Shown in pieces: positions 18,634-38,378 of a DNA stretch of 64,000 nucleotides (its first letter is position 1; every line of letters begins with the position of its first letter). The stretch is taken from assembly GCA_913056395.1 (NCBI GenBank), contig CAJXMG010000001.1:119550-183549 (forward strand). The letters run 5' to 3'. The DNA is from an uncultured bacterium. Its GTDB lineage: Bacteria > Planctomycetota > UBA8108 > UBA1146. The notes under the pieces are model-generated. The model did not search any database, was not told where the DNA came from, and saw only the letters and a program-made list of their open reading frames with translations. A program made the translations under genes and the position numbers.

Positions 18634-19095
18634 TCTTCGACCCAGAAGGAGGGCTCAATCGCCCTCCTGGGGACGCTTCCGTTCTCTCCGTTTCTTCCTT
18701 TCAACATTGATCATGCACGAGTCTGCTCAGTTGCCGTAGGCACATCCTCGTGCCCGCCCCAGATCACTTTTGCTGGGTCTCCACTATACTCCCCACTTTC
18801 AACTCCCCACTTTTCACCACCGGGCAGCCACTCTGGCCAAGGGGGCTGCCAGGGGGCTCTGGAGTGAGTTTGTCCCAATAAGGGTTCAATCGCCTCTGAG
18901 GATCTGAATTCAAACAAAGAGGAATAATTTCGGCCCATAGCTAGGGCGGAAAATTTTTTTGAGGGGTGAAGGCCCAAGATGTGGGGGTGCTCTTGGGGAG
19001 GACCCAAACCCGTTGTGGAGGGCACCTCTTAAGTCCTTATTCTGCATAGATATGTGAAAAATAGTCCCTTGCGGGGGCGAAGAGTGCCCATAAAG

Positions 19096-19120
19096 TGGGG
19101 CCAAGTGGGAACAAAGGGGG
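19096..19120 (+). promoter_or_regulatory. Candidate MraZ boxes (TGGGN direct repeats with 10-bp phasing) upstream of mraZ
   Basis: TGGGG-ccaag-TGGGA-acaaa-GGGGG at 19096-19120, ~85 nt upstream of the mraZ GTG start. The E. coli MraZ operator is three TGGGN repeats separated by 5-nt spacers. A second pair, TGGGG...TGGGG, lies at 18982-18998. Confidence 0.35.
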
Positions 19121-19204
19121 AGGGGTTCCACGTTGTGGACCCGAATGAAACACCCGGAGTTTTCGCCATAGAGGTGAAACCAACCCAGAGACCTGGAGAG
19201 ATCT

Positions 19205-19711
19205 GTGACCGCGCATTTCAAGGGACAGTTCGAGCTGACTCTCGACGACAAGGGAAGAGTGATCATCCCTTCTCGTCTGCGCTCAAAGATCGATCCTCGT
19301 TTCGATGGTGAGGGATTTGTGGCCACTGCCGGAACGGCTCCATGTCTCTGGGTCTACACCTCTGCTGAATGGGATCGGATCTCGGAAGAGGTTCGGAGAT
19401 ACGAGCGGGGTTCTGCGGAGCTCCACGAACTTCAGCGAGACCTGTTTGGTCGGGCGGAAGATTTGAACCCGGACCGTCAAGGACGGGTATTGCTCAACGA
19501 CCGTTTGAGAAATTGGGCGCAACTGGACAAGGAACTGGTCTTCGTCGGTTGCTTCGATCGCATCGAGATTTGGGATTCAACGGTCTGGACCGAACGCAAT
19601 GAAGACCGTGAAGCCTACCAGACTCGCCTCGACGTGTTCATGGGCGAGCACGGTGACTACGCAAGAAGAATGGACAAGTTCTTCGGTGGTGGATCTACCG
19701 AAGAAAAATAG
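19205..19711 (+). CDS. mraZ: Transcriptional regulator MraZ
   Basis: GTG start. Duplicated DxxxR MraZ motifs (DDKGRVIIP and DRQGRVLL). ~168 aa. Heads the dcw cluster. Confidence 0.8.
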   Translation: MTAHFKGQFELTLDDKGRVIIPSRLRSKIDPRFDGEGFVATAGTAPCLWVYTSAEWDRISEEVRRYERGSAELHELQRDLFGRAEDLNPDRQGRVLLNDRLRNWAQLDKELVFVGCFDRIEIWDSTVWTERNEDREAYQTRLDVFMGEHGDYARRMDKFFGGGSTEEK

Positions 19712-19765
19712 GGGGATGGCTGCCGAAGGGGAATCGGCAGCCGGGGAATCGACAGGGGGACAGAG

Positions 19766-20029
19766 ATGATTTCATTACTGGATCAACACGTGGATTCAAA
19801 CCACCGGCAGTCACAGGTGGTCAGCAGAATTCGGGAATTTTTGCAGACAGGTCAGCACCTTGACGAAGCTCCGGAGTCGGTGCTGAGAGACCTCGACGAG
19901 CTGTGGGATCGCGTTCAGCGCGCCCGTGCTCGCGGCGTTGAAGGCGTGCGACTGTCGAAAGGTTTGCACCGGGCTGCACGCGCCAGGGCATTTGGAAAGT
20001 TCGCCGCTCCGACCCTCGACCACATTTGA
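19766..20029 (+). CDS. Small hypothetical ORF between mraZ and rsmH
   Basis: 87-aa ORF that fills the 333-nt gap. No recognisable domain; may not be a real gene. Confidence 0.25.
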   Translation: MISLLDQHVDSNHRQSQVVSRIREFLQTGQHLDEAPESVLRDLDELWDRVQRARARGVEGVRLSKGLHRAARARAFGKFAAPTLDHI

Positions 20030-20044
20030 TTCGGGTCGTTCAGG

Positions 20045-20953
20045 TTGGCCGGGCATGTCCCCGTTCTCCTTGACGAGGTCCTCGATTCTTTGGCCCCGGC
20101 ACCGGGAGAGCATCTTCTGGACCTGACCCTGGGCAGGGCAGGTCATTCTGTGGAAATCCTTCAGCGGACATCTCCTGATGGACGTCTCGTGGGTGTGGAT
20201 CGTGATCCGGTCGCACTCCAGGAGTCGGCCCAGCGATTGCCGGAGGAAAGAGTTCTCCTGATTCAGGGCGACTTCGGCCACCTTCCGGAGTTGCGGGAGA
20301 AGATCGGTCATGAAACGTGGGATCTGATTCTTGCAGATCTGGGCGTTTCATCTCCGCAGATCGATGAGGGGGAGCGAGGGTTTTCTTTTCGCCACGACGG
20401 TCCCCTGGATATGCGCATGGACCCGACGACGGGTGAGACTGCTGCAGAGTACATCGCACGGATTGACGAGGGAGAGTTGGCGCGAATCATCCATGAGTAT
20501 GGAGAAGATCGCCATTCGAGAAGGATCGCAGCGGCGATCATCAGGGCCCAGAAGATCCAGCCACTGGAAACGACCTCCGGGTTGGCAAAGGTCATTCTGG
20601 AGGCGGTTCCCAGAAAAGCGGATCACCATATTCACCCCGCCACCCGCACCTTTCAGGCTTTGAGGATCGAAATCAACAGGGAAATGCCGGCTCTGCAGCA
20701 TCTCCTTGATCGTTGCGGGAATTTGCTCTCTCCGGGAGGGCGTCTGGCGATCCTCAGTTATCACTCTCTGGAAGACCGCAAAGTCAAACAGGCCTTCCGG
20801 AGATTGGTTCGTGAAGGGGATCACGAGCTTGTCACTCCCAAGCCGGTTCGTCCAGGCGAAGAAGAGTTGCAGCGTAATCCGCGGTCGCGATCGGTACGGA
20901 TGCGGGTTCTGAGAAGGTTGCCGGCAGTAAACAGTGGAGGAGCGAATCGATGA
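20045..20953 (+). CDS. rsmH: 16S rRNA (cytosine1402-N4)-methyltransferase
   Basis: HVPVLLDEVL N-terminus and SAM-MTase motifs (DLTLGRAGHS, ILADLGVSSPQID, DMRMD) typical of MraW/RsmH. Confidence 0.85.
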   Translation: MAGHVPVLLDEVLDSLAPAPGEHLLDLTLGRAGHSVEILQRTSPDGRLVGVDRDPVALQESAQRLPEERVLLIQGDFGHLPELREKIGHETWDLILADLGVSSPQIDEGERGFSFRHDGPLDMRMDPTTGETAAEYIARIDEGELARIIHEYGEDRHSRRIAAAIIRAQKIQPLETTSGLAKVILEAVPRKADHHIHPATRTFQALRIEINREMPALQHLLDRCGNLLSPGGRLAILSYHSLEDRKVKQAFRRLVREGDHELVTPKPVRPGEEELQRNPRSRSVRMRVLRRLPAVNSGGANR

Positions 20954-21237
20954 GTCGCAAATCCCTGTGGATGCTGCTTTGGGTTGTCGTCGCCGGTTTT
21001 GGAATGTCATGGGTGGGAATCCAGAAGATGGTCTTGAAAAGAGATGCTTACAAAGGCGCGGATCAACTGAAGGAAACCCAAAGGCTTAATGAGGAGTTGC
21101 AGATCGAAAAGATCCTTCTTGAATCAGCCCTCGTCAGGGAGATGCGACAGGCAGAATTGCGAGAGGCTCTGGTACTCGTGGGGAACTCATTCAGTGAGCA
21201 GGGAGTTCCAACACAGGGAAACTCGGAAGAGCAATGA
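20950..21237 (+). CDS. ftsL: FtsL-like small bitopic division protein
   Basis: 95 aa with an N-terminal TM (LWMLLWVVVAGFGMSWV) followed by a coiled-coil. ATGA overlap with the rsmH stop; sits in the canonical ftsL slot. Confidence 0.5.
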   Translation: MSRKSLWMLLWVVVAGFGMSWVGIQKMVLKRDAYKGADQLKETQRLNEELQIEKILLESALVREMRQAELREALVLVGNSFSEQGVPTQGNSEEQ

Positions 21238-21282
21238 GTGGAAAAATAAATACGCCCGGATAGAGAGTGAACAATCAGTTAA

Positions 21283-23355
21283 ATGATTAGACGAGATCAA
21301 ATCGACGAAGAGACTCAGGGGTTCCCGGTAAATATGTCAGCAGAACCACGCGATGATATGAAACAGCCAAACAAACTCAGCAACATCACTTTTGCAATCA
21401 TCCTGACAGGTTTAACACTGGTATTGGTGAGGTCAGCATGGATGCAACTTTTTCAAAGGGACTATTATCGTGGGGTCCAAGTCGAGGCTCAGTCTCGGAT
21501 TTCTCATGGTGGGGAAAAGCGGGGGCGGATTCTGGATCGAAATGACCAGCCCATGGCCATGGATCGCGAAATCCACAGACTGGCCATCGACCCCGATCAT
21601 TTGTCACACTGTTTTGAATTGAACCTTCAGGATCAAATTCAGCCGAAGAAGTTGTCAGTGGAGGCGATCATCCAAAAACTGGAGAACTCAGGAATTCAAT
21701 TTCTGAGTGATCGTCAGGTGCTGATCGAAGAACTATCTGCAGACATCCAGCACAGCCTTAAAGTACGAAGGAACGGAAAAGGAAATAGAATTAGGTATCG
21801 CCGTTTGGGCGATTTGGCGCCCGATGCGAAGCGTGGAATTCTTGATCAGAGCCTGTCAGAAATCAGCCGTGAATTGGGCAAATGGGTTTTCCCAAAAGTG
21901 GAAACAGAGATGGTCCGGTTTTACCCCTTTGGCACTGTAGGATCGACTTTGATCGGTGAAAAGGGCCGCAGTGAGGGCCTCTGGGGAATGGAGAGTCAGT
22001 TCAATCCAACTTTGCGCAAGGTGAAGAGCCTTGTCAAAGAGCAGATGGCACCCGGGGGCAAGAAGATGGCTCCCAATCGTGAGGCGATCCCGGGCCAGCA
22101 GGGGACAGATGTCCACACCACCATCGACATGACACTGCAGGCAGAACTGGAACATCTCTGCTTTGAAAATTATCAACGAGCCTCGGCGCGTAGTGTTTCC
22201 GCAATGGTGGTCGACCCCTTCACCGGTGAAACTCTGGCCATGGCAACAGTTCCAGGATTGCAGCGAGGTCAAATGACCGAGTTTGCCAATCAGGATCTGA
22301 TCAATGGGAGCCGTGAAGGAATGGAAACGGCTTACGGCCTGATGGCGCGCCTCCAGCGGGTTTCATTGGAACCGGGATCCGTGGTCAAGCCCCTCATTCT
22401 GGCGAGGGCTCTCGAATTGGGAATCCCCCTCGACCTTCCATTGGCTGTGAGGTCCAAAAACCAGAGGATCGATGGTCGCCGTCGACTTTTCCGTGACAGC
22501 AGCCTGCTGAAGGAGAAGACTCCGGAAGGTGCGGTCGTCTTCTCCAGCAACATTGGTATGGTTCTGCTGGGTGTGAAGCATATGAAGAAAAGTGACGTCG
22601 AATCGATTCTCAGGAGATTCGGTTTTGGATCGAAAACCGGCATCGAGTTGCCGGGAGAAGAGTTTGGTCAACTGAAGCCACTTTCAAAGTGGAATCGGTT
22701 TTCCTGGGAGTCGGCCTGCTACGGCTATGAAATGATGGTGACCCCGGTCCAGGTGCTCAGAGCCTACATGGCCATCGCCAATGGGGGATACCTTTTGGAG
22801 CCGACACTACTCAAGAAATCGCAAGATTCACCTGCACCGATCATCCTCAGTGAGAAGGTCGCAGCGGAGTGTCGTCGCGTCCTGGGCCGGGCAGTCTCTG
22901 ACGGTACCGGCAGGCACATCGTCCATCATGTGAGCCCCGAATTGCGGGAGTTGATCCGCGAGGGGAAGTTGCAGATGGCGGGGAAAACCGGCACCACCAA
23001 GTTGATGGACCCGGAAACAGGCCTCTATTCCGAGGACAAGTACAACTCGAGCTTCGTTGGATTTGCACCGGTCGACAATGCCCGCTTCCTGACAGTGGTC
23101 CTCGTGGAGGAGCCTACTCCAGAGGACAACATGTACTACGCCTCCAAATCTGCGGCTCCACTGGGGGCCCAGATCCTGTCGGCGGCCATGAATCTGCCCG
23201 GATTTAACCCCTTTTCGGTGGCATACGATGATCCGCGGGATTCTGAACCATTGATCTTGGCGACCCATGAATCGGCCGATAACCTGAGTCCTTCGGGGAG
23301 TCAGGTGGAGCCGGCCCGGGATTCCGGGCAGGAGGGGGAGCCGGATCGGTGGTAA
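21283..23355 (+). CDS. ftsI: Penicillin-binding protein, class B transpeptidase (FtsI/PBP3-like)
   Basis: N-terminal TM, SAMVVDPFTGETLAMATVP, SxxK (GSVVKP), SxN (FSSNIG) and KTGT (GKTGTTK) motifs. The true start could be a downstream Met. Confidence 0.8.
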   Translation: MIRRDQIDEETQGFPVNMSAEPRDDMKQPNKLSNITFAIILTGLTLVLVRSAWMQLFQRDYYRGVQVEAQSRISHGGEKRGRILDRNDQPMAMDREIHRLAIDPDHLSHCFELNLQDQIQPKKLSVEAIIQKLENSGIQFLSDRQVLIEELSADIQHSLKVRRNGKGNRIRYRRLGDLAPDAKRGILDQSLSEISRELGKWVFPKVETEMVRFYPFGTVGSTLIGEKGRSEGLWGMESQFNPTLRKVKSLVKEQMAPGGKKMAPNREAIPGQQGTDVHTTIDMTLQAELEHLCFENYQRASARSVSAMVVDPFTGETLAMATVPGLQRGQMTEFANQDLINGSREGMETAYGLMARLQRVSLEPGSVVKPLILARALELGIPLDLPLAVRSKNQRIDGRRRLFRDSSLLKEKTPEGAVVFSSNIGMVLLGVKHMKKSDVESILRRFGFGSKTGIELPGEEFGQLKPLSKWNRFSWESACYGYEMMVTPVQVLRAYMAIANGGYLLEPTLLKKSQDSPAPIILSEKVAAECRRVLGRAVSDGTGRHIVHHVSPELRELIREGKLQMAGKTGTTKLMDPETGLYSEDKYNSSFVGFAPVDNARFLTVVLVEEPTPEDNMYYASKSAAPLGAQILSAAMNLPGFNPFSVAYDDPRDSEPLILATHESADNLSPSGSQVEPARDSGQEGEPDRW

Positions 23356-24800
23356 AGGGGAACGGAATATCGCTGATTGATTCCGCGACTGGGGACCTGC
23401 AAGAGGTTCTCGGTGCACCTTTGCTTTCCGGTTCGCAGACCGACTCCTTCAAATGTCTGACCTGGGATGACCGACAGGCTCCCGGAGATCTCTTCATCGC
23501 CATTCGCGGAACGGTTCATGACGGCGCGGCTTCCATCCCACAAATGCTGGAATTGGGAGTCCGTGGCATCATTTCGGAAAATGAGCCTCCCGCCAATCCG
23601 CCGGCAGATCTGACCTGGTGGCAAGTGGAGAATTCACGGGAGGCTTTCGCCCGACTGGTTCACCACGCCTGGGGTGAGCCCGCCGCGCAGATTCCGGTCT
23701 TTGGCATCACTGGGACCAATGGCAAAAGCAGTACGGTTCATCTGTTGGCTTCGATTCTGGATGTCGCAAACATGAACCCGGGTTGGGTAACGACCGTCGA
23801 TCAAAGGATCGCAGGAGCATGTCGAGAGAGTTCCTGCACCACTCCTTCTGCGGATCAGTTGGCTCTCAGTCTTCGTGAACATGTCGAGTCGGGTGGTCGA
23901 TCGATGGTGTTGGAGATCTCCTCCCATGCCATCCATCAACACCGTGTCACGGGAATTCCGCTGGTCGCTGCCGCTGTGACACAGTTGGGGCGCGACCATC
24001 TCGACTATCACGGAACCGTCGAAGAGTACCATGCCGTCAAAAAGGAACTTCGCCATCAAGTCAGGGAGGGGGGCGTTTTCCTGCTTCCCGATCACGTAGA
24101 CAAGGACACGGTGGCATTCGAGGATCTTTTTACGGGCCGACGCTGGACCGGCAAGGTTCTTCAACAGAATGCAAAAGGGGTGCGGGCTATCCTTCAGGGT
24201 GCTGATTGGGAGTTCGAACTGAATTGGAACCGGCCTGCACGCCACGATCTTTCGAATGCTTTGTGTGCTACTGTTCTCGCCGATTCCGCAGGGATATCTG
24301 TTGCCTGTATTCGGGAGGGATTGGTGAGTGCCAAGCCAGTTCCCGGTCGGATGGAAGAAGTTTCCCGGGGAGTCTTCGTCGATTATGCGCACACTCCTGA
24401 CGCTCTCGAATCGGCGTTGAAAGTGTGTCGTGAGATTTGCCGTGGAGAATTGAGAGTCCTCTTTGGTTGCGGGGGGGACCGTGATCAGGGGAAGCGATCA
24501 CAAATGGGCAAGGTGGCTGCGGATCATGCGGATGCCATTTTTCTCACCGATGACAATCCCCGATCAGAGTCCTCCGATCAGATCCTTGAGCAGATCCTCG
24601 TCGGTGTGGGGGATCATCCCCGGGTAGAGAAAAATACGGACAGGCGTCAAGCCATCGGGACAGCCCTTCAGAACCTTCGTGAAGAAGACATCCTGTTGAT
24701 CGCCGGAAAAGGTCATGAAACCACGCAGGAGATCAGGGGGGAGAAGTTTCCCTTCGACGACTGTGAAGTGGTCAGGGATTGGCTGGGGGTGACCACGTGA
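23349..24800 (+). CDS. murE: UDP-N-acetylmuramoyl-L-alanyl-D-glutamate--2,6-diaminopimelate ligase
   Basis: Mur ligase P-loop (GITGTNGKSST) and MurE-type N-terminal domain (DSFKCLTWDDRQAPGDLFIAIRG). Sits in the dcw slot after ftsI. Confidence 0.8.
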   Translation: MVKGNGISLIDSATGDLQEVLGAPLLSGSQTDSFKCLTWDDRQAPGDLFIAIRGTVHDGAASIPQMLELGVRGIISENEPPANPPADLTWWQVENSREAFARLVHHAWGEPAAQIPVFGITGTNGKSSTVHLLASILDVANMNPGWVTTVDQRIAGACRESSCTTPSADQLALSLREHVESGGRSMVLEISSHAIHQHRVTGIPLVAAAVTQLGRDHLDYHGTVEEYHAVKKELRHQVREGGVFLLPDHVDKDTVAFEDLFTGRRWTGKVLQQNAKGVRAILQGADWEFELNWNRPARHDLSNALCATVLADSAGISVACIREGLVSAKPVPGRMEEVSRGVFVDYAHTPDALESALKVCREICRGELRVLFGCGGDRDQGKRSQMGKVAADHADAIFLTDDNPRSESSDQILEQILVGVGDHPRVEKNTDRRQAIGTALQNLREEDILLIAGKGHETTQEIRGEKFPFDDCEVVRDWLGVTT

Positions 24801-26236
24801 AGCCGATTTCACTTTCAGCCCTTGTTTCCCGATTGCGAACCCCCGTCCAGAGTGGCGACGCTTCCCTGGCGGGAATCGATGTGAAAGTTCACTCCAGCTC
24901 CCACAAGGATGGGGGTGAAGTGACGATCACCGGATTCGCCCTGGACAGCCGGCATGTGAAGCCAGGCTTCGCCTTTCTCGCATTTCAGGGGGACAATTGT
25001 CATGGACTCGATTTTGCTGAACAGGCGATAGCGTCGGGGGCCTGCCTGGCGATCTCTGAACCTGGATACGATCGGGAACTCCCGATACCCCTTTTGGAAA
25101 TCCCGGACCTGCGTCAGGGGTTACGTCACTTGGCTACCGCAGAGCAGGTACCGGCTCCCGGCAAGCCCAAAACTGTAGCGGTCACCGGGAGTGTTGGAAA
25201 AACGACGACCTGTCAACTGGGGTCTGCATTGAGTAGCAGTCTCTACTCGACCCACTCGCCCAGAAACTCTTTCAATAATTTCCTCGGCGTCCCCATCACC
25301 ATTCTCGAAGCCTCCGCAGAGACAGAAGTTCTGTGGCTGGAGATGGGAACCAACGAGCCCGGCGAAATTTCGGGATTGGCAGCGATGGGGCAACCGGACA
25401 TTGCGGTGGTTACCGCAGTGGGGGCGACCCATCTGGAGAAGTTGCAGAGTACCGAAGGTGTTTTCCGGGAAAAATTTTCCCTCTTTGATCAGGCCGGAAT
25501 TCAAAGGGCTGTTGCCCCGATTCAATATCGATTTGATTCGATGCCTGTGCCCTGTTGGTGGACAGGGCCGGGAGGAGATGTGGAAATCCAGCCGATTATA
25601 TCCTTGCCGGGAAGGTATCGTTTCGAGCATCGCCCTCAAGGTTTGATCTTCGAATTCGAAACAACGTTACAGGGAACAGGTTCACTTCGCTGTCTCGAGT
25701 CTGCGATCACCGTGGCGTTGGAGTTGGGGATTCCTGTCGAAAAAATACGTGCTTCAACTCCACTCCTCGAGCTTCCTCGCCTTCGCCAGGAACTGTATTC
25801 CATCGATGGTGTGGAGTTGGTGCTCGATTGTTACAACGCTTCACCCCCTTCCGTTGAGGGGGCAATCGCAGACTTAAGTTCCACTTCTGCTTCCCGCAAA
25901 ATGGCTGTCCTCGGCACCATGGAGGAGTTGGGAGCCGACGAGGCGGAATACCATCGGCAAATGGGACAGGCTTGTGCCAATGCGGGACTCGACCATCTTT
26001 GGTGTGTGGGGCGAGGCGCACAGTGGTTGCATGAAGGGGCCCAATCTGCGGGTGGGGCGTCTTCAATCCTTTCCAGAGATGATCACGGTTTGGCCTGCCT
26101 CCTATCAGAGTTGCAGTCTGGGGACCGAGTGCTCTTCAAGGCTTCCAGAAAGGAAGCTCTCGAATCTCTTGCTCATGATTTAAAGAATCGAATGGAAGAG
26201 CGGCTTGCCATGGCGAAGGGGGGACCCCAGGAATGA
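24779..26236 (+). CDS. murF: UDP-N-acetylmuramoyl-tripeptide--D-alanyl-D-alanine ligase
   Basis: FALDSRHVKPGFAFLAFQGDNCHG N-domain and P-loop (VTGSVGKTTT). Start is TTG 24779, or GTG 24797 which overlaps the murE TGA as GTGA. Confidence 0.8.
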   Translation: MAGGDHVKPISLSALVSRLRTPVQSGDASLAGIDVKVHSSSHKDGGEVTITGFALDSRHVKPGFAFLAFQGDNCHGLDFAEQAIASGACLAISEPGYDRELPIPLLEIPDLRQGLRHLATAEQVPAPGKPKTVAVTGSVGKTTTCQLGSALSSSLYSTHSPRNSFNNFLGVPITILEASAETEVLWLEMGTNEPGEISGLAAMGQPDIAVVTAVGATHLEKLQSTEGVFREKFSLFDQAGIQRAVAPIQYRFDSMPVPCWWTGPGGDVEIQPIISLPGRYRFEHRPQGLIFEFETTLQGTGSLRCLESAITVALELGIPVEKIRASTPLLELPRLRQELYSIDGVELVLDCYNASPPSVEGAIADLSSTSASRKMAVLGTMEELGADEAEYHRQMGQACANAGLDHLWCVGRGAQWLHEGAQSAGGASSILSRDDHGLACLLSELQSGDRVLFKASRKEALESLAHDLKNRMEERLAMAKGGPQE

Positions 26237-27399
26237 GTTCCTCTACCGAGATGACTTCCATCACTTCTGCAGATGGCCGATTGCAACCGGCCAAACAGAG
26301 AGTGCCGATCTTTGCTTCTCTGGTTTTCTTGTTGATCATCGGATCCATCGCCCTGTTCAGTGCCACCAGTTATCGTTCAGAGGTTCAGCATGATGACGTC
26401 TGGCAGATGTGGGCGGGTCAATTCAGAGGGTACACTCTTGGCCTGCTATTTTTTATGATCGGTTACTTCGTCTCTCCGCGTCGTTGGTTAACCTCGGGAG
26501 CGAGTGTGAGCCTTGCAGTGGTTCTGGTTCTACTTCTTTTGGGAACCAAATTCTCGCCGATGGGGATTGAGAGAAATGATGCCCAGCGTTGGTTAAAGAT
26601 TGGCAGTCTCGTTTTTCAGCCGTCGGAGTTGGCCAAGTTTGTTCTTCCGGTTTTACTTATCTATCTCACTGGGCCGTGGAAGTTTCAGGGCAATCCCCTG
26701 AATCCGCCGAGTAATACTCCCCGGTATATCCTTTCTGTGGGCCTGATTTTCTTCCCCCTGTTTCTTATCCTGATCCAGCCGGATCTCGGAACCACCGTCG
26801 TCGTCGGAGGCCTCTGCCTGATTCCGATTTCCAGATCCCGACGGCTCCGCCGTTTGGTCAGCATGGGTGCGGTCGGACTCATGGCGATCCTCCTTTTGAC
26901 TCAGACTTCCCGATTCCCTGAGTTCGGAGAGCGATTCAGGGCGATCTGGGACCCCCAGTCAGTGGATCAGGTTTGGGCCGGTTTCCAGTCCATCGGCAGT
27001 GGTGGACTCTTTGGCAGGGGGCTTGGTGAAGGCGCAGGGAAATTGGGTTATCTGCCTTCCGCATACAACGATTTCATCTTTGCTGTCTACGCAGAAGAGA
27101 CCGGGTTCGTTGGAGTGACAGTGGTGGTGGTGCTCTTCGGTACGCTGCTGTGGTGTGGCCGCAAGCTCTGGCAGTCACTGGAAGACGATGATCTTTCATT
27201 GCTGGCGATGGTGTTGACTCTGGCCATCACCGGACAGGCCGCATTGAATATCATGGTCAATCTGGCCTTGCTCCCGACCAAAGGAATTGCTTTGCCCTTT
27301 TTCTCCCATGGATCCACGGGATTGGCGGTATTCATGGGCATGTCAGGTGTGCTCTTGGCCCTGACACGATGTCGTGGCAAGGAGGTCTTGCCGGCATGA
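26233..27399 (+). CDS. ftsW: SEDS-family peptidoglycan glycosyltransferase FtsW
   Basis: ~10 TM helices and SEDS motifs (GSGGLFGRGLGEG, LPSAYNDFIFAVYAEETGFVG, LPTKGIALPFFSHGSTG). ATGA overlap with murF. Confidence 0.8.
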   Translation: MSSSTEMTSITSADGRLQPAKQRVPIFASLVFLLIIGSIALFSATSYRSEVQHDDVWQMWAGQFRGYTLGLLFFMIGYFVSPRRWLTSGASVSLAVVLVLLLLGTKFSPMGIERNDAQRWLKIGSLVFQPSELAKFVLPVLLIYLTGPWKFQGNPLNPPSNTPRYILSVGLIFFPLFLILIQPDLGTTVVVGGLCLIPISRSRRLRRLVSMGAVGLMAILLLTQTSRFPEFGERFRAIWDPQSVDQVWAGFQSIGSGGLFGRGLGEGAGKLGYLPSAYNDFIFAVYAEETGFVGVTVVVVLFGTLLWCGRKLWQSLEDDDLSLLAMVLTLAITGQAALNIMVNLALLPTKGIALPFFSHGSTGLAVFMGMSGVLLALTRCRGKEVLPA

Positions 27400-28502
27400 A
27401 TCGCAGAATCCTCATCGTGGGCGGCCATACGGGTGGGCATCTTTATCCGGCGGAGTCTCTCGCCAGAGAGTTGATAGTCGGGGGAGTGGGAACTCCGGTA
27501 TTGCTGGATCATCAGCGACCTCTTGAACAACGGGTGTTCAACGATGAAGGAATGGAAAAAGTTCTCGCTCCATGGCATGCAAAGGGGCGATTTGCGTTTG
27601 TCTCCTCCTTGCCAGCCGCCATTAAATTTTTGAGACAGCAGAAGATCTCCGCAGTGGTCGGTTTTGGTGCCTTCCCTTCTGTGATCGCCGGGTTGGCAGC
27701 AAAGTGTCTCAGGATTCCCCTCTATCTTCATGAACAGAACCGGGTGATGGGATTGGCAAACAGGATCCTTGCCCCGCTGGCGGAGAAAGTTTTTCTCTCC
27801 TCTCCACTCGTTTCCCCTTCCAGAAATCTGCGCTCAAAAAGCGCAATTCTGGGTTGCCCGATCCGGCCAGAGTTTCAGCCTTGCGAAGCCCCCGACACAC
27901 CCCTGCGTTGCTTGATTCTCGGCGGAAGTCAGGGAGCGGAAGAGGTCAATCACCGGATTCTTGCTGCCGCAGATTTCCTCAAGCCGGAGTTGAAGCAGAA
28001 TCTCAAGGTCGTTCACATGGCGAGCGAGCCGAACACTCAGCAAGTCAGGAAGGCCTGGAGTGACAAGGGCTTCAGTGCCCGTGTAGAACCCTACCTTCCC
28101 GAGATGTTTAAAGAGATGTCACAATCCCATCTGGTGATCTCGCGAGCGGGGGCATCGACATTGGCGGAGTTGACAGCAGTGGGTCGTGGAGGAATCTTCC
28201 TTCCGTATCAGAATCATGCAGATCAACACCAACTTCATAACGCCCGATTCCTAGAAGAATGGGGTGCCGGAATCGTATTGGATTCTGGCACTACAGCGGA
28301 ACACTTCGCCGAGATTCTGGAAAAAGCATTGTTGAATGGCCTATGGCGCGAGTATTCGAGTCGGGCTGGCGAGTTGGGCCGCCCCCGGGCGGCGACCGCC
28401 ATCAGTGAAACGATTCGTATCCATCTGGACGCACGGGAGGGACGTTCCTTTTCCGATCGTCCTGGAGAGCCAGCCTTGTTACGGAATGAGGTGGAAGCCT
28501 GA
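27369..28502 (+). CDS. murG: Undecaprenyldiphospho-muramoylpentapeptide beta-N-acetylglucosaminyltransferase
   Basis: N-terminal GGHTGGHLYPA motif and a GT28 C-terminal domain (ISRAGASTLAEL). Confidence 0.8.
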   Translation: MSWQGGLAGMNRRILIVGGHTGGHLYPAESLARELIVGGVGTPVLLDHQRPLEQRVFNDEGMEKVLAPWHAKGRFAFVSSLPAAIKFLRQQKISAVVGFGAFPSVIAGLAAKCLRIPLYLHEQNRVMGLANRILAPLAEKVFLSSPLVSPSRNLRSKSAILGCPIRPEFQPCEAPDTPLRCLILGGSQGAEEVNHRILAAADFLKPELKQNLKVVHMASEPNTQQVRKAWSDKGFSARVEPYLPEMFKEMSQSHLVISRAGASTLAELTAVGRGGIFLPYQNHADQHQLHNARFLEEWGAGIVLDSGTTAEHFAEILEKALLNGLWREYSSRAGELGRPRAATAISETIRIHLDAREGRSFSDRPGEPALLRNEVEA

Positions 28503-29185
28503 TGGGTGCGTTGATCCGCTGGACTCTGGTGCTGGGAATACTCTTTTTCGGGGTCAGTGGAACCATCGATTGGTGGACTCCCGTGGTCGTGCCTTCGTCC
28601 AATGCCATCAGTGATCGCTCCGTTTCAAGAGTCGATCTAGTTTGGGTTTCCGATTCCGGGACCGGTGAGGTTTCGACGGAGCGTGGGGAACAACGAGAGA
28701 TTCTTCCGGAAAGGCTGGAACCCGGGCCGGGTCAATATCGGGGAGGGATCGTCGATCTTGATGAACCTTCAGATCCCATGATTTCCGGGGGCCGTCAGCA
28801 AACGCAATCGAGGGTCTATTCCGTTCAGCAGGGGGACACACTGGGAGAGATCGCTCAGCGATTTTTGGGCTCTGTGGGGGTTGGCACCCGAAAGCTCCGA
28901 GAACTGAATCCCGAGATTCCCGAGAACGGCATGATCAGGGTCGGGCAGGAATTGTTGATTCCAGCGGTAGTTTCCACGCCTTCTCCAAAGGCTCCCCCGG
29001 TTCAGACACAAACACCGATTTCACCCAGGATTCATGTGGTTCAGGAGGGCGATACCCTCTCCGCAATTACCCGCAAATATTTGGGGCATGAAAACTTCAG
29101 CGAGATTCTGAGTGCCAACCGGGATATCCTCTCCGATCCGAACCAACTCAAGCCAGGTTTGAGATTGAGGATTCCGAATGATTGA
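28502..29185 (+). CDS. Membrane-anchored protein with two LysM domains
   Basis: N-terminal TM (LIRWTLVLGILFFGVSG). Two LysM repeats (YSVQQGDTLGEIAQRFLG...LNPEI; HVVQEGDTLSAITRKYLG...ANRDIL). TGATG overlap with the murG stop, and an 8-nt overlap with the murC start. Confidence 0.7.
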   Translation: MGALIRWTLVLGILFFGVSGTIDWWTPVVVPSSNAISDRSVSRVDLVWVSDSGTGEVSTERGEQREILPERLEPGPGQYRGGIVDLDEPSDPMISGGRQQTQSRVYSVQQGDTLGEIAQRFLGSVGVGTRKLRELNPEIPENGMIRVGQELLIPAVVSTPSPKAPPVQTQTPISPRIHVVQEGDTLSAITRKYLGHENFSEILSANRDILSDPNQLKPGLRLRIPND

Positions 29186-30617
29186 ATCCCATGAGAGGCG
29201 CACAAGGATGCCGGCACAGAAAAACCAAGGGACTGATTCTCCTCAAAATGAGTGGATTCATGTCATTGGTGTCGGCGGCAGTGCGACCCGAGGTTTGGCC
29301 TGCATGCTTCGTCGCCAAGGGCATCCCGTTTCTGGCAGTGATCAGGATCCCGATTCCCGGAGTATTCTGGAAGAACATGGGGTGATCTTCTACGAAGGCC
29401 ATGCCGCTTCAAACCTAGCTCAAGAAGTGCAGACGGTCGTTCATACCCGTGCAATTCACCCTTCCAACCCGGAGTTGCTGGAGGCTCACAAGAGGTCGGG
29501 AGTAAAGATCTACACCTACAGCGAATATCTGGGTTTGATCTCCGAACGCCTGTCGACGATCGCAGTGGCGGGAACCCACGGGAAAACCTCTACCACGGCC
29601 TGTTTGTTCAGTGTTTTTCAGGCTGCAAAAAGGGATCCTTCCCTGATCGTGGGGGGAGAGGTGGTCCAGATTCAAGCCGGTTGGCATCAAGGAGAGGGAA
29701 CCGAGTTTCTGGTTGAGGCTTGCGAGTTTGACAAGGCGTTCCTCGACCTGAAGCCAAAGGCTGCAATCATCACCAATGTGGATTTGGATCACCCCGAGAT
29801 CTACAAAGATCTCGAATCGGTGAGGCAAACTTTCCGTGAATTTCTCGCCAATCTTTCTGACGGTTCCTGGGTGGTTTGCCCCATCGAGGTCAAGGAGGCT
29901 CTCAAAGTCGACGATCGACTGAGGTGGCGTACCTTCGGTATGGAAAACAATGCAGATTTGCAGCTGAAGGAAAGTGTCAGTACTGCAGGCTCTACAAAGG
30001 TTCTGTGGAGTTGGGCAGACGGCAGGGTGTTTTCTGCCACCCTCAATGTTCCCGGTGCCCACACCAGATCCAATGCTTCCGCGGTGGTGGCGCTGGCGGA
30101 TGCCCTGAATATCTCATCTGAAGAGATGGCCCGCGGCCTTGAAAACTACCGGGGAGTTTGCCGGAGATTTGAGAAGCGAGAAATTCTCCCGGGGATTGAG
30201 TGGATCGAAGACTATGCGCATCATCCAGAAGAGGTTCGTGCCACGCTGGAGACCGCTCGGGAGGTCTACCCCCATCAGCGACTTCACGCACTTTTCCAAC
30301 CGCATCAGGCGACTCGATTGAGTGCCTTCAGTAAAGGCTTTGCTGAGGAGTTGTCCCGAGCAGATCAGGTGACTCTTTTGCCAATTTTTTCAGTTCGTGA
30401 AGAATTAGACCAGTTTCCAGAGGACCTTGTCGATCAACTGGCTTTGAAAATCCGTCAAAAGGGCAAAGAGTGTCAGGTCACGGATTTTGAAAAAGCGGTT
30501 TCAGAATTGCCCAAACATCTCCAATCAGGAGATGTACTGATCTCCATCGGTGCAGGGAATGTGTACCAGGTTGGTAATCTCGTTCGAGAGAACCAGCGCA
30601 GGCAGGTGACACAATGA
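29178..30617 (+). CDS. murC: UDP-N-acetylmuramate--L-alanine ligase
   Basis: IHVIGVGGSATRGLA (MurC N-terminal Rossmann) and P-loop (VAGTHGKTSTT). Confidence 0.8.
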   Translation: MIESHERRTRMPAQKNQGTDSPQNEWIHVIGVGGSATRGLACMLRRQGHPVSGSDQDPDSRSILEEHGVIFYEGHAASNLAQEVQTVVHTRAIHPSNPELLEAHKRSGVKIYTYSEYLGLISERLSTIAVAGTHGKTSTTACLFSVFQAAKRDPSLIVGGEVVQIQAGWHQGEGTEFLVEACEFDKAFLDLKPKAAIITNVDLDHPEIYKDLESVRQTFREFLANLSDGSWVVCPIEVKEALKVDDRLRWRTFGMENNADLQLKESVSTAGSTKVLWSWADGRVFSATLNVPGAHTRSNASAVVALADALNISSEEMARGLENYRGVCRRFEKREILPGIEWIEDYAHHPEEVRATLETAREVYPHQRLHALFQPHQATRLSAFSKGFAEELSRADQVTLLPIFSVREELDQFPEDLVDQLALKIRQKGKECQVTDFEKAVSELPKHLQSGDVLISIGAGNVYQVGNLVRENQRRQVTQ

Positions 30618-31513
30618 AACCGCCAACCAACATTCAGGAAAACAAATCGATGGGGGACCTGACGTGGTTCCGCAGTGGTGGTAACGCCAGGTTTTACCTG
30701 TCTCCTTCTTCTGAAGAAGAATTGATAGAGGCCACCAAGTGGGCTTTCCGTGAAGAAGTGCCTTTTCACCTCATGGGCTTGGGGGCCAACTCTCTCTTTC
30801 CGGATGACGGTTATCCCGGTTTGATTCTCCACATGGTCAGGTTTCGACAGAGAGGGGAGCACTATCGAAGTTGCACTCCATCGGTGGTGGAGGTCGATGC
30901 CGGAATCAATCTCGAAAATCTGGTGAAAAAATTGAACGAGGCCGGTCTCGGTGGTTTCGAAAAGTTTGTGGGAATTCCCGGTACCGTCGGTGGATCTGTA
31001 TGGGGGAATGCCGGTGCGCAAAATTCCAGCCTGGGAGACCGGGTCGAATCTGTGAAAATTCTCGACTCGCAGGGTGCTGTCCATTGGGTCAAGGGAGATC
31101 AGATTACATGGAGATACCGTTCCTCCGGCTTGGGAAACCGAATCATTCTTGCTGCACGATTCCAGGTTGATCCTGATCAGGAACCGGAAGAGTTGAAAAG
31201 CCGGAGTGCGGGCTTTTTGCAATACAAAAAAAGTGTTCAGCCTTATGACGAAAAGTCGACCGGCTGCATTTTCAAAAACCCCGGTGCGGGTCGCAGTGCC
31301 GGTCAGTTGATCGATGAGTTGAACCTCAAGGGGTTATGCGAGGGGGGAGCACAGGTTTCCGATTTGCACGGGAACTTCATCGTCAACACTGAGCAGACTG
31401 CAACCACGGCGGACGTACTAGCTCTCGTCAGCAAAGTGCAGGAAAAAGTCTACGAAGAAGAGGGCGTGAGATTGGAACGGGAAGTCATCGTCGTCGGGGA
31501 GGGCAGTGAATGA
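30614..31513 (+). CDS. murB: UDP-N-acetylenolpyruvoylglucosamine reductase
   Basis: FAD-binding domain (WFRSGGNARFY, HLMGLGANSLF, GIPGTVGGSVWGNAGA) and a MurB C-terminal region. ATGA overlap with murC. Confidence 0.75.
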   Translation: MKPPTNIQENKSMGDLTWFRSGGNARFYLSPSSEEELIEATKWAFREEVPFHLMGLGANSLFPDDGYPGLILHMVRFRQRGEHYRSCTPSVVEVDAGINLENLVKKLNEAGLGGFEKFVGIPGTVGGSVWGNAGAQNSSLGDRVESVKILDSQGAVHWVKGDQITWRYRSSGLGNRIILAARFQVDPDQEPEELKSRSAGFLQYKKSVQPYDEKSTGCIFKNPGAGRSAGQLIDELNLKGLCEGGAQVSDLHGNFIVNTEQTATTADVLALVSKVQEKVYEEEGVRLEREVIVVGEGSE

Positions 31514-32352
31514 GTACTCCCAATGCTTCTCAGGGCCAATGGAAAACAGCCTTTGCTTTTTTACTGGCTTTTGTCTTTGTGGGACTTGCTCTCAGGCATG
31601 CCCGCAATGAGGTCGACCTTCAACGAGCTGCGGACGCAGGTTCCTGGAGCCTGACTGAAGACAGTTTTCCGGATTGGTTTCCTCAAACATTGACACCGGC
31701 CCTCAAAGAATTACAGCAGATCCCATCCCGAATTCCCCATGACAGCGTTCACTGGCGTGATCACGTTCGAAGTCAATTGTTGGAGAATCCATGGGTTCAT
31801 TCTGTGGGGTCGATTGAACGTCAGATGGGCGAGATTTCTTTCAGCGCAGTTTTGAGAAGACCCGTCGTCGCCGTCCGTTGTCCTGGAGGGCATCTGTTGG
31901 TGACCCCAGAGGGAAGGGTCATCGATTACGAAGAGGGATATACGCTGGATCCTCACTGGAGGATTCCGGAGTATTCATCCATGGGAGGCAATGCAAATGT
32001 GGAGGCAAACCTCCGCACGTTGCCGGCTGGAGATGAGTGGAGTCAGTTGTTGACATTGGTGGGTGACCTCTTCGATCACGGAATCCTCTCTGATCACTCA
32101 GGGTTTGTGGAGGAACTCCGCTGGAGTCCGCAGAATGATGGTGGATTCTGGTATCTGATCTGTGAGGGGGGACTGCGTCTGGCCTGGGGAAAGGCCACCG
32201 GTTCCGGGTCCAGATTGCCGGGGAGCGTGCGGGATAAAATCACTGCCATGAGAAAAGTGATTGCTGACAAGGATCGATTGGTCCCATTGGCAACCTCCAT
32301 CGACGAAATCAGCCTCTTCGCTGGTCCTAACCCGATCGTTACCCAACGCTGA
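31510..32352 (+). CDS. ftsQ: FtsQ/DivIB-like bitopic protein (assigned mainly by position)
   Basis: ATGA overlap with murB. N-terminal TM (WKTAFAFLLAFVFVGLAL) and a ~250-aa periplasmic domain. It is the last coupled gene of the dcw operon. Sequence similarity to FtsQ is weak. Confidence 0.4.
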   Translation: MSTPNASQGQWKTAFAFLLAFVFVGLALRHARNEVDLQRAADAGSWSLTEDSFPDWFPQTLTPALKELQQIPSRIPHDSVHWRDHVRSQLLENPWVHSVGSIERQMGEISFSAVLRRPVVAVRCPGGHLLVTPEGRVIDYEEGYTLDPHWRIPEYSSMGGNANVEANLRTLPAGDEWSQLLTLVGDLFDHGILSDHSGFVEELRWSPQNDGGFWYLICEGGLRLAWGKATGSGSRLPGSVRDKITAMRKVIADKDRLVPLATSIDEISLFAGPNPIVTQR

Positions 32353-32484
32353 ACACCTCCCGGCTACTGACCCTGAATATCACCCCGGATCCCTCCCATA
32401 ACCCCTCGGAGAGGTAGCGTCTGGGAGGCTCGGGGATTATCCTGATAGCTGTTCAGAGGCAAAAAATGTCGAAAAGGAGCCGGA

Positions 32485-32754
32485 GTGTCCAATCCGGATC
32501 GGTATCGCAGGTTGATCGGGGAAGTGGCCCAGGAGATGGGTTACGTTTCCGCCGAAGCTGTCGACGAAGCTTTGTCTGTTCAGGAGAAGCGCCGATCGGA
32601 GGGACTCAAGGTTCCCCTGTTGGGGCAAATCCTGGTTGAGCTGAATCATTTGACCCCGGAACAACTGCAACAACTGATTGAAGTGATCTACCCCGTCGAG
32701 GAAGACGGGGGCGAAGATCCAGATCCCCCCTCAGAGAGCGGTGAGGAAGACTGA
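32485..32754 (+). CDS. Small acidic protein with a tandem MshEN/GspE-N-like motif
   Basis: 89 aa. RRLIGEVAQEMGYVSAEAVDEALSVQ and LLGQILVELNHLTPEQLQQLIEV fit the MshEN pattern RLGxxLxxxGxLxxxxLxxALxxQ. Its stop overlaps the next start as TGATG. Confidence 0.5.
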   Translation: MSNPDRYRRLIGEVAQEMGYVSAEAVDEALSVQEKRRSEGLKVPLLGQILVELNHLTPEQLQQLIEVIYPVEEDGGEDPDPPSESGEED

Positions 32755-34772
32755 TGTCCGCAGACGACGGCAAGAAAAAACGCAGAGTACCTGCACCCAG
32801 AAAAAAAGCCGGTGGTGGGGAAAGCTCCCGAAGAGTTCCACCGAGAAGAGTCGCTCCGGGAAAGAAGCCCGCAACTCCTTCTGAAGAATCGGTCGATTCC
32901 TCCGCTGCAGAAGAAGCCGCAGCAAAGCAAGCCGCAGCCCAGCAAGCCGCAGCCCAGCAAGCCGCAGCAAAGCAAGCCGCAGCAAAGCAGGCCGCAGCAA
33001 AGCAGGCCGCAGCAAAGCAGGCCGCAGCAAAGCAGGCCGCAGCAAAGCAGGCCGCAGCAAAGCAAGCCGCAGCAAAGCAGGCCGCAGCCCAGCAAGCCGC
33101 AGCAAAGCAGGCCGCAGCAAAGCAAGCCGCAGCAAAGCAGGCCGCAGCCCAGCAAGCCGCAGCAAAGCAAGCCGCAGCAAAGCAAGCCGCAGCAAAGCAA
33201 GCCGCAGCGCGTCAGGCTGGTGCTCCCCAAGGAGATACCGCAAAGAAGCCAGCAGTTCCTGCGCGGAAGGCGAGACCTGGCTCGCGGGCACCTGCTGCAA
33301 CGGGATCCGCTGCCAGAGCGGCCTCACCTCGCAAGGGTGCAGGTCGCCGGGGCGCTCCGCCCGCAAGTGCACGTCGCAGGACAGGCGGAGAAGGTGATCT
33401 TGATGAGTTCGAGGGAGATGAGAAAAAATCACCACTGGTGTGGATTCTAGGTGGGGCTGCAGTGGTATTGATCGGTGGATTGGGCATCGTGATGATGTCG
33501 GGTGATGATCCGCCACCTGAGCCAGCCCCCAGCGCCAATACCGCCGCAAACAAACCCAGCCCCAAACAGCAAGAAGAGATTCGTGAGGAGCGGGCCAGAA
33601 AAGCCCTCGACCGGGTCGAGAAAGCAAACTCTGCCAATCCGACCCAACGCTATGAATGTGCAGCCCGATTGCAAATGGTCGCGATCGATTACTCCAATAC
33701 CCAGGCCGGTGCTGAAGCGGGTGAGTTGAGATCCCAACTGCTCAGGACCTGGAATGACGAAGTCGTCGCCGCCTGGAATGCGCTCCGCGGTGATGTATTG
33801 ACCGCATTCAGTGAGGCACGATTTGAGCAGGCTGAGCGCATGCTTGAAGAATTGCCGCCAGTGTTTTTGGGGGCGGCAGACGTTTTGGAGTCTGCATTTG
33901 AAAATGAAATCGATCGACTGCGGAAAGACGCCAAGGCGCAGGCACGTTTCAAGAAACGTCTGGATGAACTCTCGACCAAGGCCGGGGTCTACGCCCGGAA
34001 AGGCTATGAGGACATTGCGATTGCTGTGATCGAAGCCCTCCCCGAAAAAGTGGAGGAAGATGCTCCGGATGTCTGGCGCTTGAAGGAAGAGTTGATCCAG
34101 AAAATTCAGCGTGACGGCCTCGCCTTGTTGATCGAACAGGAATCGGCTCTGGAAGCGGAATTGGCAGAAGCTCGTCGCCTGGAAGAAGAGCGCAAGCAAG
34201 CCGAGCGTATCCGGCGCTGGCAGGAGCTGCGTGACTCTGTCGCATGGAAACCCCTGTTGAGTCGATTCAACCTGTACAACTGGGTGGCCTCCAGCGACAA
34301 GATGTTGGAGAAACCACTCTGGAGGGTTCTCGATCGCAATGGTGCAGGTGTCATGCTGGTGGACAATCGTTCCGGCCGCGATGCCTACACCGGGGTATAT
34401 TCGAACCATTGGGAAGATTATGTCCTCGAGTTTGAGCTCAACCTGAAGGTGGGGGCATTGCGAATTTCCCCGCGAACCCAGGCGAATGCTCAAATGGGGG
34501 CGATCACCGATGGCACTTCACCGCCTTTGGAATTGGGAGACGATTTCCCGAAGAACCGCTGGCTCAAAGTCACCATGGAGGTCAACGGCAACTCGGTGGA
34601 ACTCCGCTACGGCGATTCGGGTAAACGGCTGACCATGGATTCCGAAACAACTCGACTTCCCTCCACCGGTGGTTTTGTGTTTTACGCAGGTGACGGCACC
34701 CGGCTCGAGATTCGTGGAGTCAGGGTCAAGCTGGTCAATGACACCCGTGAGGGGGGAATCTTCGCCAAATAG
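32754..34772 (+). CDS. Bitopic protein: basic N-terminus, ~20 AAAKQ pentapeptide repeats, one TM, ~430-aa C-terminal domain
   Basis: 672 aa. Reads KKKRRVPAPRKKAGG..., then (AAAKQ/AAAQQ) x ~20, then an Arg/Pro-rich linker, a TM (LVWILGGAAVVLIGGLGIVMM) and a helical plus beta-rich C-terminus. Followed by a terminator. Confidence 0.6.
   Translation: MSADDGKKKRRVPAPRKKAGGGESSRRVPPRRVAPGKKPATPSEESVDSSAAEEAAAKQAAAQQAAAQQAAAKQAAAKQAAAKQAAAKQAAAKQAAAKQAAAKQAAAKQAAAQQAAAKQAAAKQAAAKQAAAQQAAAKQAAAKQAAAKQAAARQAGAPQGDTAKKPAVPARKARPGSRAPAATGSAARAASPRKGAGRRGAPPASARRRTGGEGDLDEFEGDEKKSPLVWILGGAAVVLIGGLGIVMMSGDDPPPEPAPSANTAANKPSPKQQEEIREERARKALDRVEKANSANPTQRYECAARLQMVAIDYSNTQAGAEAGELRSQLLRTWNDEVVAAWNALRGDVLTAFSEARFEQAERMLEELPPVFLGAADVLESAFENEIDRLRKDAKAQARFKKRLDELSTKAGVYARKGYEDIAIAVIEALPEKVEEDAPDVWRLKEELIQKIQRDGLALLIEQESALEAELAEARRLEEERKQAERIRRWQELRDSVAWKPLLSRFNLYNWVASSDKMLEKPLWRVLDRNGAGVMLVDNRSGRDAYTGVYSNHWEDYVLEFELNLKVGALRISPRTQANAQMGAITDGTSPPLELGDDFPKNRWLKVTMEVNGNSVELRYGDSGKRLTMDSETTRLPSTGGFVFYAGDGTRLEIRGVRVKLVNDTREGGIFAK
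32916..33209 (+). repeat. Tandem 15-nt DNA repeat (gccgcagcaaagcaa / gccgcagcccagcaa) x ~20
   Basis: Near-perfect head-to-tail 15-mers visible directly in the sequence. They encode the AAAKQ repeats and create spurious ORFs in other frames on both strands. Confidence 0.9.
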
Positions 34773-34821
34773 AAGATGAACGCGGGCTGTCACTCTGGCA
34801 GGCCTGTGCTGAAGAGTCAGA

Positions 34822-34861
34822 GGAGGGGCTGTCACTGTGGCAGTCCCTCCTTTTTCTTTTT
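34822..34861 (+). terminator. Rho-independent terminator
   Basis: GGAGGGGCTG...CAGTCCCTCC hairpin (10 bp, one G-T wobble) followed by TTTTTCTTTT. Confidence 0.6.
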
Positions 34862-35120
34862 CGAAGAGGTTTTCTTAAGTTGCCCTGATTTATAGGTTTA
34901 GAGCAGCGGATTCTGTGGCATATGGCCCGCTCTTTGCTGTGAAGATCATGGCCGCCCATAGTCTGCGCAGGCTTCTGGCAGGTTGATCGCCCGTGATCGG
35001 TCCTCCGGAGCAGGGTCAGAGGGGGTACCCGGCTGTTGCACGGGAACTTTCGGGAAACAGTGATTCCCCTTTTGTGGCGGTGTCCAACTTTGCGAATTCG
35101 AAACAAGAGGAGAGGCTCCA

Positions 35121-36761: not shown

Positions 36762-38378
<1,617 letters not shown>

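Follow-up and report, generated by a model that had tools for sequence, protein, structure and literature searches.

In E. coli, the canonical cluster of division and cell wall genes (dcw) has the order mraZ-rsmH-ftsL-ftsI-murE-murF-mraY-murD-ftsW-murG-murC-ddlB-ftsQ-ftsA-ftsZ, and Oscillospirales-type Clostridia carry the version mraZ-rsmH-ftsI-murE-murF-mraY-ftsW-murG-ftsZ. All planctomycetes have lost ftsZ and most have lost ftsA, and their dcw cluster has undergone erosion and fragmentation (PMC12673574; also PMC5147048, PMC8871954). MraY is probably encoded in all Planctomycetes-Verrucomicrobia-Chlamydiae (PVC) genomes (PMC5147048). In Planctopirus limnophila the genes are scattered, with murF/E at Plim_0680/0681, murD at Plim_1571, mraY at Plim_1131, ftsW at Plim_1127, murG at Plim_0205, murB/C at Plim_0011/0012 and ddl at Plim_0009 (PMC12283558, Table 1). 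Here we analyzed a 64 kb stretch of DNA from an uncultured bacterium (assembly GCA_913056395.1, contig CAJXMG010000001.1; hereafter the window, whose own positions are used throughout), in which a dcw operon occupies 19205-32352 as 13 consecutive open reading frames (ORFs) on the + strand, in the order mraZ-orf87-rsmH-FtsL-like-ftsI-murE-murF-ftsW-murG-LysM-murC-murB-divergent FtsQ. We conclude that this is very probably a well-preserved planctomycete dcw operon from which ftsA and ftsZ are gone, as they are across the phylum, and whose mraY, murD and ddl have shifted to other parts of the genome.

The locus shares with the E. coli cluster its mraZ-rsmH 5' end, the relative order of the genes that both contain and the overlap of cistrons, and the GTGGG-type repeats that precede its mraZ may be a further common feature. 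The order ftsL-ftsI-murE-murF after mraZ-rsmH is the canonical one, with the ftsL equivalent recognized by position and architecture, and so is the order ftsW-murG-murC-murB-ftsQ, apart from the insertion of a gene for a LysM-domain protein after murG and the lack of ddl. Unlike the E. coli cluster, the locus is without mraY, murD, ddl, ftsA and ftsZ, and it has murB, orf87 and the LysM gene as well as, just downstream, orf89 and a gene for a 672-aa protein. The clostridial clusters resemble it in that most of those sampled have no murD, and they differ from it in having mraY after murF and in retaining ftsZ. P. limnophila, which belongs to the same phylum, likewise has no ftsZ or ftsA and has mraY, murD and ddl away from murE-murF; its cluster, however, is scattered in pairs, whereas the locus described here is one compact, partly overlapping operon of at least 13 genes. 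The retention of ftsL-like, ftsI, ftsW and ftsQ genes is as reported for planctomycete groups that keep peptidoglycan genes (PMC12673574, PMC5147048, PMC12283558).

Such erosion is already known as a trait of the phylum; the locus is another eroded planctomycete dcw cluster and leaves current knowledge unchanged. What is unusual about it is mainly its compactness, the direct murF-ftsW junction and the inserted LysM gene. It offers a well-preserved example of the erosion of a normally very stable cluster in the Planctomycetota, in which the compact operon of a marine lineage retains an FtsL-like protein, FtsI, FtsW and FtsQ without FtsA or FtsZ, and mraY is gone from the otherwise invariant murF-mraY pair.

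Absence of canonical dcw genes and the murF-ftsW junction

An earlier, sequence-only reading of the window had listed mraY, murD, ddl, ftsA and ftsZ as missing from the cluster, and our searches found none of them in the cluster, in the 64 kb window or in the ~7 kb beyond its left end, a scope of ~71 kb of contiguous sequence and not of the genome. When E. coli proteins were used as tblastn queries against the window, MraY, FtsQ, FtsA and FtsZ had no match at E<1 in any frame, DdlB gave two chance matches only (E 0.19 and 0.38), and MurD matched only its paralogues MurC and MurE. A Pfam scan of ~50 ORFs in the window recovered no member of the MraY, MurD, Ddl, FtsA or FtsZ families. The ~7 kb past the left end of the window contains thiF, plsY, gpsA, glnB, glnA and similar genes and no dcw genes, and there are no dcw genes in ~1 kb past the right end.

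The stop codon of murF and the start codon of ftsW share an ATGA at the place where mraY and murD normally sit, so that no remnant of either gene is left. At least four independent assemblies, from ENA, Logan and TARA, that encode the identical FtsW have this adjacency. Elsewhere in the operon, overlaps are common: the junctions rsmH/orf95, ftsI/murE, murE/murF, murF/ftsW, ftsW/murG, murG/LysM and murB/ftsQ overlap by -4, -7, -4, -4, -4, -1 and -4 nt, respectively, in the form of ATGA or GTGA at rsmH/orf95, murE/murF, murF/ftsW, ftsW/murG and murB/ftsQ and of TGATG at murG/LysM. Three others are open, by +54, +15 and +45 nt. The remaining two depend on the start codons chosen, as LysM/murC and murC/murB are gaps of +22 and +32 nt with conservative starts and overlaps of -8 and -4 nt with the longest ORFs (alternative starts: murC at 29178, overlapping the LysM gene, and murB at 30614, overlapping murC). 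Overlapping junctions make up 7/12 of the total with conservative starts and 9/12 with the longest ORFs of murC and murB. The sequence-only reading was right that most junctions overlap, but its term "fully coupled" overstated the case, since 3-5 of the 12 junctions are gaps. From this arrangement, we infer that many of the cistrons are translationally coupled.

Gene order and selection across a planctomycete clade

To place the locus among other dcw clusters, we used 80 loci retrieved with a MurF profile, a sample that is biased to Oscillospirales-like Clostridia. Within this biased sample, murF was followed by mraY in 64/64 non-planctomycete loci, and mraY was followed directly by ftsW, without murD, in 46/61 and by murD in 15/61. 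This shows that murD is often outside the cluster and that the murF-mraY pair is very stable. It had been suggested that mraY and murD are the genes most tightly retained, which stands for mraY (after murF in every such locus) but not for murD (missing from most of them).

The Planctomycetota loci had murF-ftsW in 11 cases and murF-mraY in three. Two of the metagenome-assembled genomes (MAGs) from this phylum, with loci L046 and L065, keep murF-mraY-ftsW, unlike the locus described here, and have no LysM gene. Two others, with loci L043 and L079, have murF followed directly by ftsW together with a LysM gene, as here, and differ in that L043 has no murG in its cluster and L079 has neither murG nor murC, both of which are present here. 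All four, like this locus, are without murD, ftsA and ftsZ in the cluster. These other Planctomycetota clusters show intermediate states. As L043/L079 grouped with L046/L065 at 88% in a five-protein tree whose deep topology is unresolved, one exit of mraY is not distinguishable from two.

The planctomycete origin proposed for the window agrees with its relatives, in that nearly all related GTDB loci and all MurF homologues with a source name and >~35% identity come from Planctomycetota MAGs (e.g., TMED53, 57%). The loci with the same gene order are likewise all from Planctomycetota MAGs except L014, which is titled Bacillota. The absence of ftsZ, which had been read as a sign of this origin, fits it, as ftsZ has been lost across the phylum (PMC12673574).

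When dcw order was compared across the related loci, the murF-ftsW junction and the whole order were found to be kept through the clade. The complete arrangement, dnaE(-)|orf259|mraZ-orf87-rsmH-ftsL-like-ftsI-murE-murF-ftsW-murG-LysM-murC-murB-ftsQ-like-orf89-~650-aa gene-groEL, is present in the sister species L092 (GCA_041258965.1, 85% MurF identity), in L007 (57%) and in L009-L018 (40-44%), among which L011 and L013-L018 are GTDB species representatives and L012 and L017 are short fragments with only part of the cluster. L019 (34% MurF identity) has only the core from ftsI to the ftsQ-like gene. The clade, a deep one made up of marine Planctomycetota MAGs, is monophyletic with 100% bootstrap in a neighbour-joining tree of five dcw proteins. 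The planctomycete loci L027 and L046, as possible sources of an MraY seed, are as distant from it (~34% for MurF) as other phyla are.

We assessed selection from the ratio of non-synonymous to synonymous divergence (dN/dS), computed against the sister species L092. The ratio was 0.04-0.15 for all enzymes (0.04-0.12 for MurE, MurF, MurG, FtsW and FtsI), 0.06 for mraZ, 0.22 for the LysM gene, 0.15 for the FtsQ-like gene, 0.47 for the FtsL-like orf95, and 0.06 for both orf89 and the 672-aa gene. All operon genes are under purifying selection. Given the conservation of order in the clade and the low dN/dS values, we conclude that the operon is a functional, long-conserved unit and not a decaying remnant.

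Two related contigs have features of their own. L014 (QNYK01000092.1), from "Bacillota bacterium MAG 7", contains a complete planctomycete-clade cluster in the same order, and this MAG is probably misclassified or contaminated. In L093 (GCA_041259255.1, JBETJC010000052.1), a contig of the sister species, ftsW is split into ORFs of 226 and 145 aa at 11455-12621, and the gene after orf89 is one with a Phage-tail_3 domain (17953-19983) instead of the 672-aa gene, giving the contig a foreign-looking 3' end; the cause may be an assembly error or frameshift, chimerism of the contig or a genuine insertion.

Probable displacement of mraY, murD and ddl weighed against other explanations

MurE and MurG act on substrates that are made by MurD and MraY. 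As MurE and MurG need these products and are both under strong purifying selection, a true loss of MraY and MurD is unlikely. We propose that mraY, murD and ddl most probably left the cluster and now lie elsewhere in the genome; the lack of ftsA and ftsZ is explained by division without FtsZ throughout the phylum. Several observations weigh against this proposal. There is no trace of mraY, murD or ddl in the window and the ~7 kb upstream of it (~71 kb contiguous) or in any 20 kb locus of the clade; MurF, FtsW and MurG score under the NCBIfam equivalog cut-offs, which indicates strong divergence; a promoter scan, which is blind to non-canonical promoters, gave no sigma-70-like site upstream of mraZ; and in some Planctomycetia most mur genes are truly gone (PMC12283558), with many such genes lost in several orders (PMC12283558, PMC12673574). 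The missing genes and the losses in Planctomycetia would also fit a true absence of mraY, murD and ddl from the genomes of the clade, the pathway being either modified, with non-homologous or divergent enzymes, or on its way to being lost. We consider this very unlikely, since 71 kb is a few per cent of a genome, MurE and MurG would be without substrate if MurD and MraY were lacking, and a decaying pathway would differ from one in which MurE, MurF, MurG, FtsW and FtsI have the low dN/dS values given above and are kept down to 34% MurF identity; P. limnophila, moreover, has mraY and murD far from murEF (PMC12283558). Slighter still is the chance that the clade has no homologues of MraY and MurD and that unrecognised, non-homologous enzymes form lipid I and add D-Glu, in which case the conserved genes of no known family in or near the operon could join an FtsZ-independent divisome. 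An artefact of assembly or binning, with the murF-ftsW junction created in a collapsed or chimeric contig, has a probability close to zero: the sequence is metagenome-assembled and the related contig L093 has the anomalies described above, yet at least four assemblies made independently in different projects have the same junction, as do about a dozen diverged species, and the ATGA overlap leaves both reading frames intact.

Another explanation concerns the additional genes, as orf87, the LysM protein, orf89 and the 672-aa protein could be lineage-specific parts of the divisome that replace FtsA, FtsZ or FtsN. Their conservation in position, the purifying selection on them, the location of orf89 and the 672-aa gene exactly at the ftsA-ftsZ place, and the retention of the LysM gene in dcw clusters of distant Planctomycetota are consistent with such a role. 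Co-location alone is weak evidence, however, and neither homology nor fold matched any of them to a division protein; a search outside the clade returned no orf87, orf89 or 672-aa protein, and none of the extra proteins could take over the enzymatic role of MraY or MurD. We regard this explanation as unlikely, and the four proteins could be considered candidates for a part in FtsZ-less division through a link that is positional only. Displacement of mraY, murD and ddl, combined with the phylum-wide loss of ftsA and ftsZ, is the explanation that we retain.

Gene assignments in the dcw operon

Scans with Pfam and NCBIfam identified 10 of the 13 ORFs; orf87, orf95 and orf280 had no family match. 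The operon begins with mraZ (19205..19711), which encodes a transcriptional regulator (PF02381, E 3.7e-26, two stretches), and continues through orf87 (19766..20029) to rsmH, also called mraW (20045..20953), whose product is a 16S rRNA m4C1402 methyltransferase (PF01795, E 8e-96) with 44% identity to E. coli RsmH. After the FtsL-like orf95 (20950..21237) comes ftsI (21283..23355), encoding a class-B penicillin-binding protein transpeptidase (PF00905, E 4e-47; PF03717) with an N-terminal transmembrane (TM) helix and the motifs SVVK366, SSN421 and KTG568. The murE product (23349..24800) is a ligase adding meso-diaminopimelate (meso-DAP), as it scores 377 bits with TIGR01085, above the cut-off of 257, and contains DNPR, the meso-DAP motif. 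For murF (24797..26236), predicted to encode the D-Ala-D-Ala-adding ligase and containing a GSVGKT P-loop, TIGR01143 was by far the best family and was covered at positions 1-417/418, with a score of 265 bits that is below the cut-off of 288.6.

The next gene, ftsW (26233..27399), encodes a SEDS glycosyltransferase (PF01098, E 1e-64) that scores 232 bits with the ftsW model TIGR02614 versus 190 bits with the rodA model, and murG (27396..28502) encodes lipid II synthase (PF03033 and PF04101; TIGR01133, 204 bits). Between murG and murC lies the gene for a membrane-anchored protein (28502..29185) with an N-terminal TM helix and two LysM domains (PF01476, two stretches); LysM is a peptidoglycan-binding domain. 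The last three ORFs are murC (29208..30617; TIGR01082, 369 bits, above the cut-off of 335, with 106 bits for the murD model), murB (30650..31513; PF02873 and PF01565) and orf280, a divergent ftsQ/divIB (31510..32352). In and around the operon, scans for Rfam families and tRNA genes had no matches.

These family scans, together with protein architecture and a fold match, bore out all gene assignments of the sequence-only reading, including its tentative ftsL and ftsQ-like genes. Its view that neither murF nor ftsW is a mis-assigned mraY or murD held as well, with TIGR01143 and the ftsW model scoring best and the murD model scoring low. We also considered MurD as the identity of one of the three Mur ligases and ruled it out, as the murD model gave 23-106 bits versus 265-377 bits for their own families. 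MraY has ~360 aa and ~10 TM helices; it was ruled out as the identity of any small ORF without a family, none of which has more than one TM helix.

As predicted from these assignments, the operon would supply four cytoplasmic precursor enzymes, MurB, MurC, MurE (of the meso-DAP type) and MurF, along with the lipid II synthase MurG. It would further encode the septal pair FtsW-FtsI, FtsL-like and FtsQ-like scaffold proteins, and a membrane-anchored LysM protein that may bind peptidoglycan.

FtsL-like orf95 and FtsQ-like orf280

The orf95 product had no Pfam or NCBIfam match and is a small bitopic protein whose TM helix (residues 5-25) precedes a charged helical tail, as in FtsL. An ORF of the same architecture occupies this position in all clade loci. 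On the basis of position and architecture only, it is reasonable to call orf95 FtsL-like.

The orf280 product has a TM helix at residues 10-33 and, in an AlphaFold2 (AF2) model with a predicted local distance difference test (pLDDT) score of 75.6, built from a shallow alignment (the homologue search yielded six proteins only), a bitopic architecture that combines a POTRA domain with a C-terminal beta domain. In a Foldseek search with this model, the four best PDB matches were FtsQ of E. coli and Yersinia (E 1.6e-6 to 2.3e-5) and the fifth was DivIB. Alignment to an FtsQ profile with hhalign gave E 1.3e-4 in the correct register. An orf280 family hidden Markov model (HMM) matched the positional equivalent of orf280 in L079 (14621-15502, E 8.8e-7), which itself passes Pfam FtsQ_DivIB_C with 24 bits versus a cut-off of 21, and a protein 99% identical to that of orf280 is named FtsQ/DivIB by NCBI. 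A direct match of orf280 to Pfam POTRA_1 or FtsQ_DivIB_C or to NCBIfam was not obtained, with one of nine clade members reaching E 0.034, and a profile search of PDB sequences gave chance matches only. From the modelled fold, the hhalign result, the family HMM link and the NCBI name, we conclude that orf280 is a divergent FtsQ.

LysM gene, orf87, orf89 and the 672-aa protein

Homologues of the LysM gene lie within the dcw clusters of the clade, and also in those of two distant Planctomycetota loci, L043 and L079. The gene directly follows ftsW in L043 (12737-13399) and L079 (12538-13194), and it follows murG here. The literature that we searched contained no joint mention of LysM, dcw and planctomycetes. 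Judged by these occurrences and by the predicted domains, planctomycete dcw clusters repeatedly include a gene for a membrane-anchored protein with a pair of LysM domains.

Between mraZ and rsmH, orf87 encodes a clade-specific three-helix protein that is 100% identical in amino-acid sequence to that of the sister species L092 despite a synonymous divergence (dS) of 0.49, and 45-82% identical across the clade. It belongs to no Pfam or NCBIfam family, and its AF2 single-sequence model had no PDB match. No orf87 turned up in the more distant Planctomycetota loci.

Downstream of the FtsQ gene, orf89 (32485..32754, + strand) encodes a conserved, clade-specific small protein that is 57-72% identical across the clade, has no family above threshold and is probably co-transcribed with the operon. 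It is followed by the gene for the 672-aa protein (32754..34772, + strand), which is conserved in the clade and is predicted to be bitopic, with Ala/Lys/Gln-rich N-terminal repeats, a TM helix (residues 225-251) and a ~420-aa C-terminal domain. This protein had only low-complexity HC2/histone H1-like matches, below the cut-offs, and its C-terminal domain gave a faint 3-keto-disaccharide-hydrolase-like signal. A 15-nt tandem repeat of 20.5 copies at 32902-33208 encodes its AAKQA-type units. In L001, an otherwise identical assembly, the protein has 642 aa versus 672 aa here, reflecting either a polymorphism in repeat number or an assembly collapse.

Upstream region and extent of the transcription unit

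Upstream of mraZ by ~90-110 nt, at 19095..19119 on the + strand, we identified MraZ-box-like direct repeats (GTGGG-GCCAA-GTGGG-AACAA-AGGGG) as a putative operator. In E. coli, the MraZ operator consists of direct GTGGG repeats with 5-nt spacers. The pattern GTGGGN5GTGGR has this one match in the window, which on its own is not significant, with 0.41 matches expected by chance. The core CCCATAARGTGGGNNNAAGTGG occurs once in each of 12 clade loci at the same place upstream of mraZ, and it is invariant while the flanking intergenic alignment has diverged. Control of the operon by MraZ through this putative operator is suggested by the motif and its conservation, and transcription would probably start upstream of mraZ, at a promoter in which the conserved repeat lies.

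The strongest terminator-like site in the scanned region 18400-35200 is a hairpin at 34819..34853 (+ strand), after the 672-aa gene, that combines a 16-pair stem with a T-run, and no comparable + strand site was found inside the operon in that scan. As there is no strong internal terminator and the best site follows the 672-aa gene, the transcription unit probably extends past 32352, through orf89 and the 672-aa gene, to this hairpin. The genes up to that point presumably form a single transcription unit.

The intergenic region before mraZ (18634-19204) is unusually long at ~570 nt, and our comparison with relatives covered its last 186 nt. It contains further GTGGG/CCCAC-type motifs, for example two copies of AAGTGGGGAG on the - strand near 18790-18815 and GTGGGGG/TGGGGAGG near 18980-19000. 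The gene before it, orf259 (17854-18633, + strand), has no family and is conserved in the clade, and its homologues lie upstream of the dcw clusters in L046, L065 and L079 (HMM E 3e-9 to 2e-5).

Further upstream of the cluster, just beyond dnaE, the - strand encodes a Ser/Thr protein kinase with an FHA domain (10937-13504) and a 285-aa protein of Ala_racemase_N-type fold (13504-14361), which is probably YggS-like rather than an alanine racemase. Directly downstream of the dcw unit, two groEL genes lie in tandem on the + strand (35121-36755 and 36774-38378), followed by dnaJ and grpE up to 40128, and in every clade locus groEL comes after the cluster.

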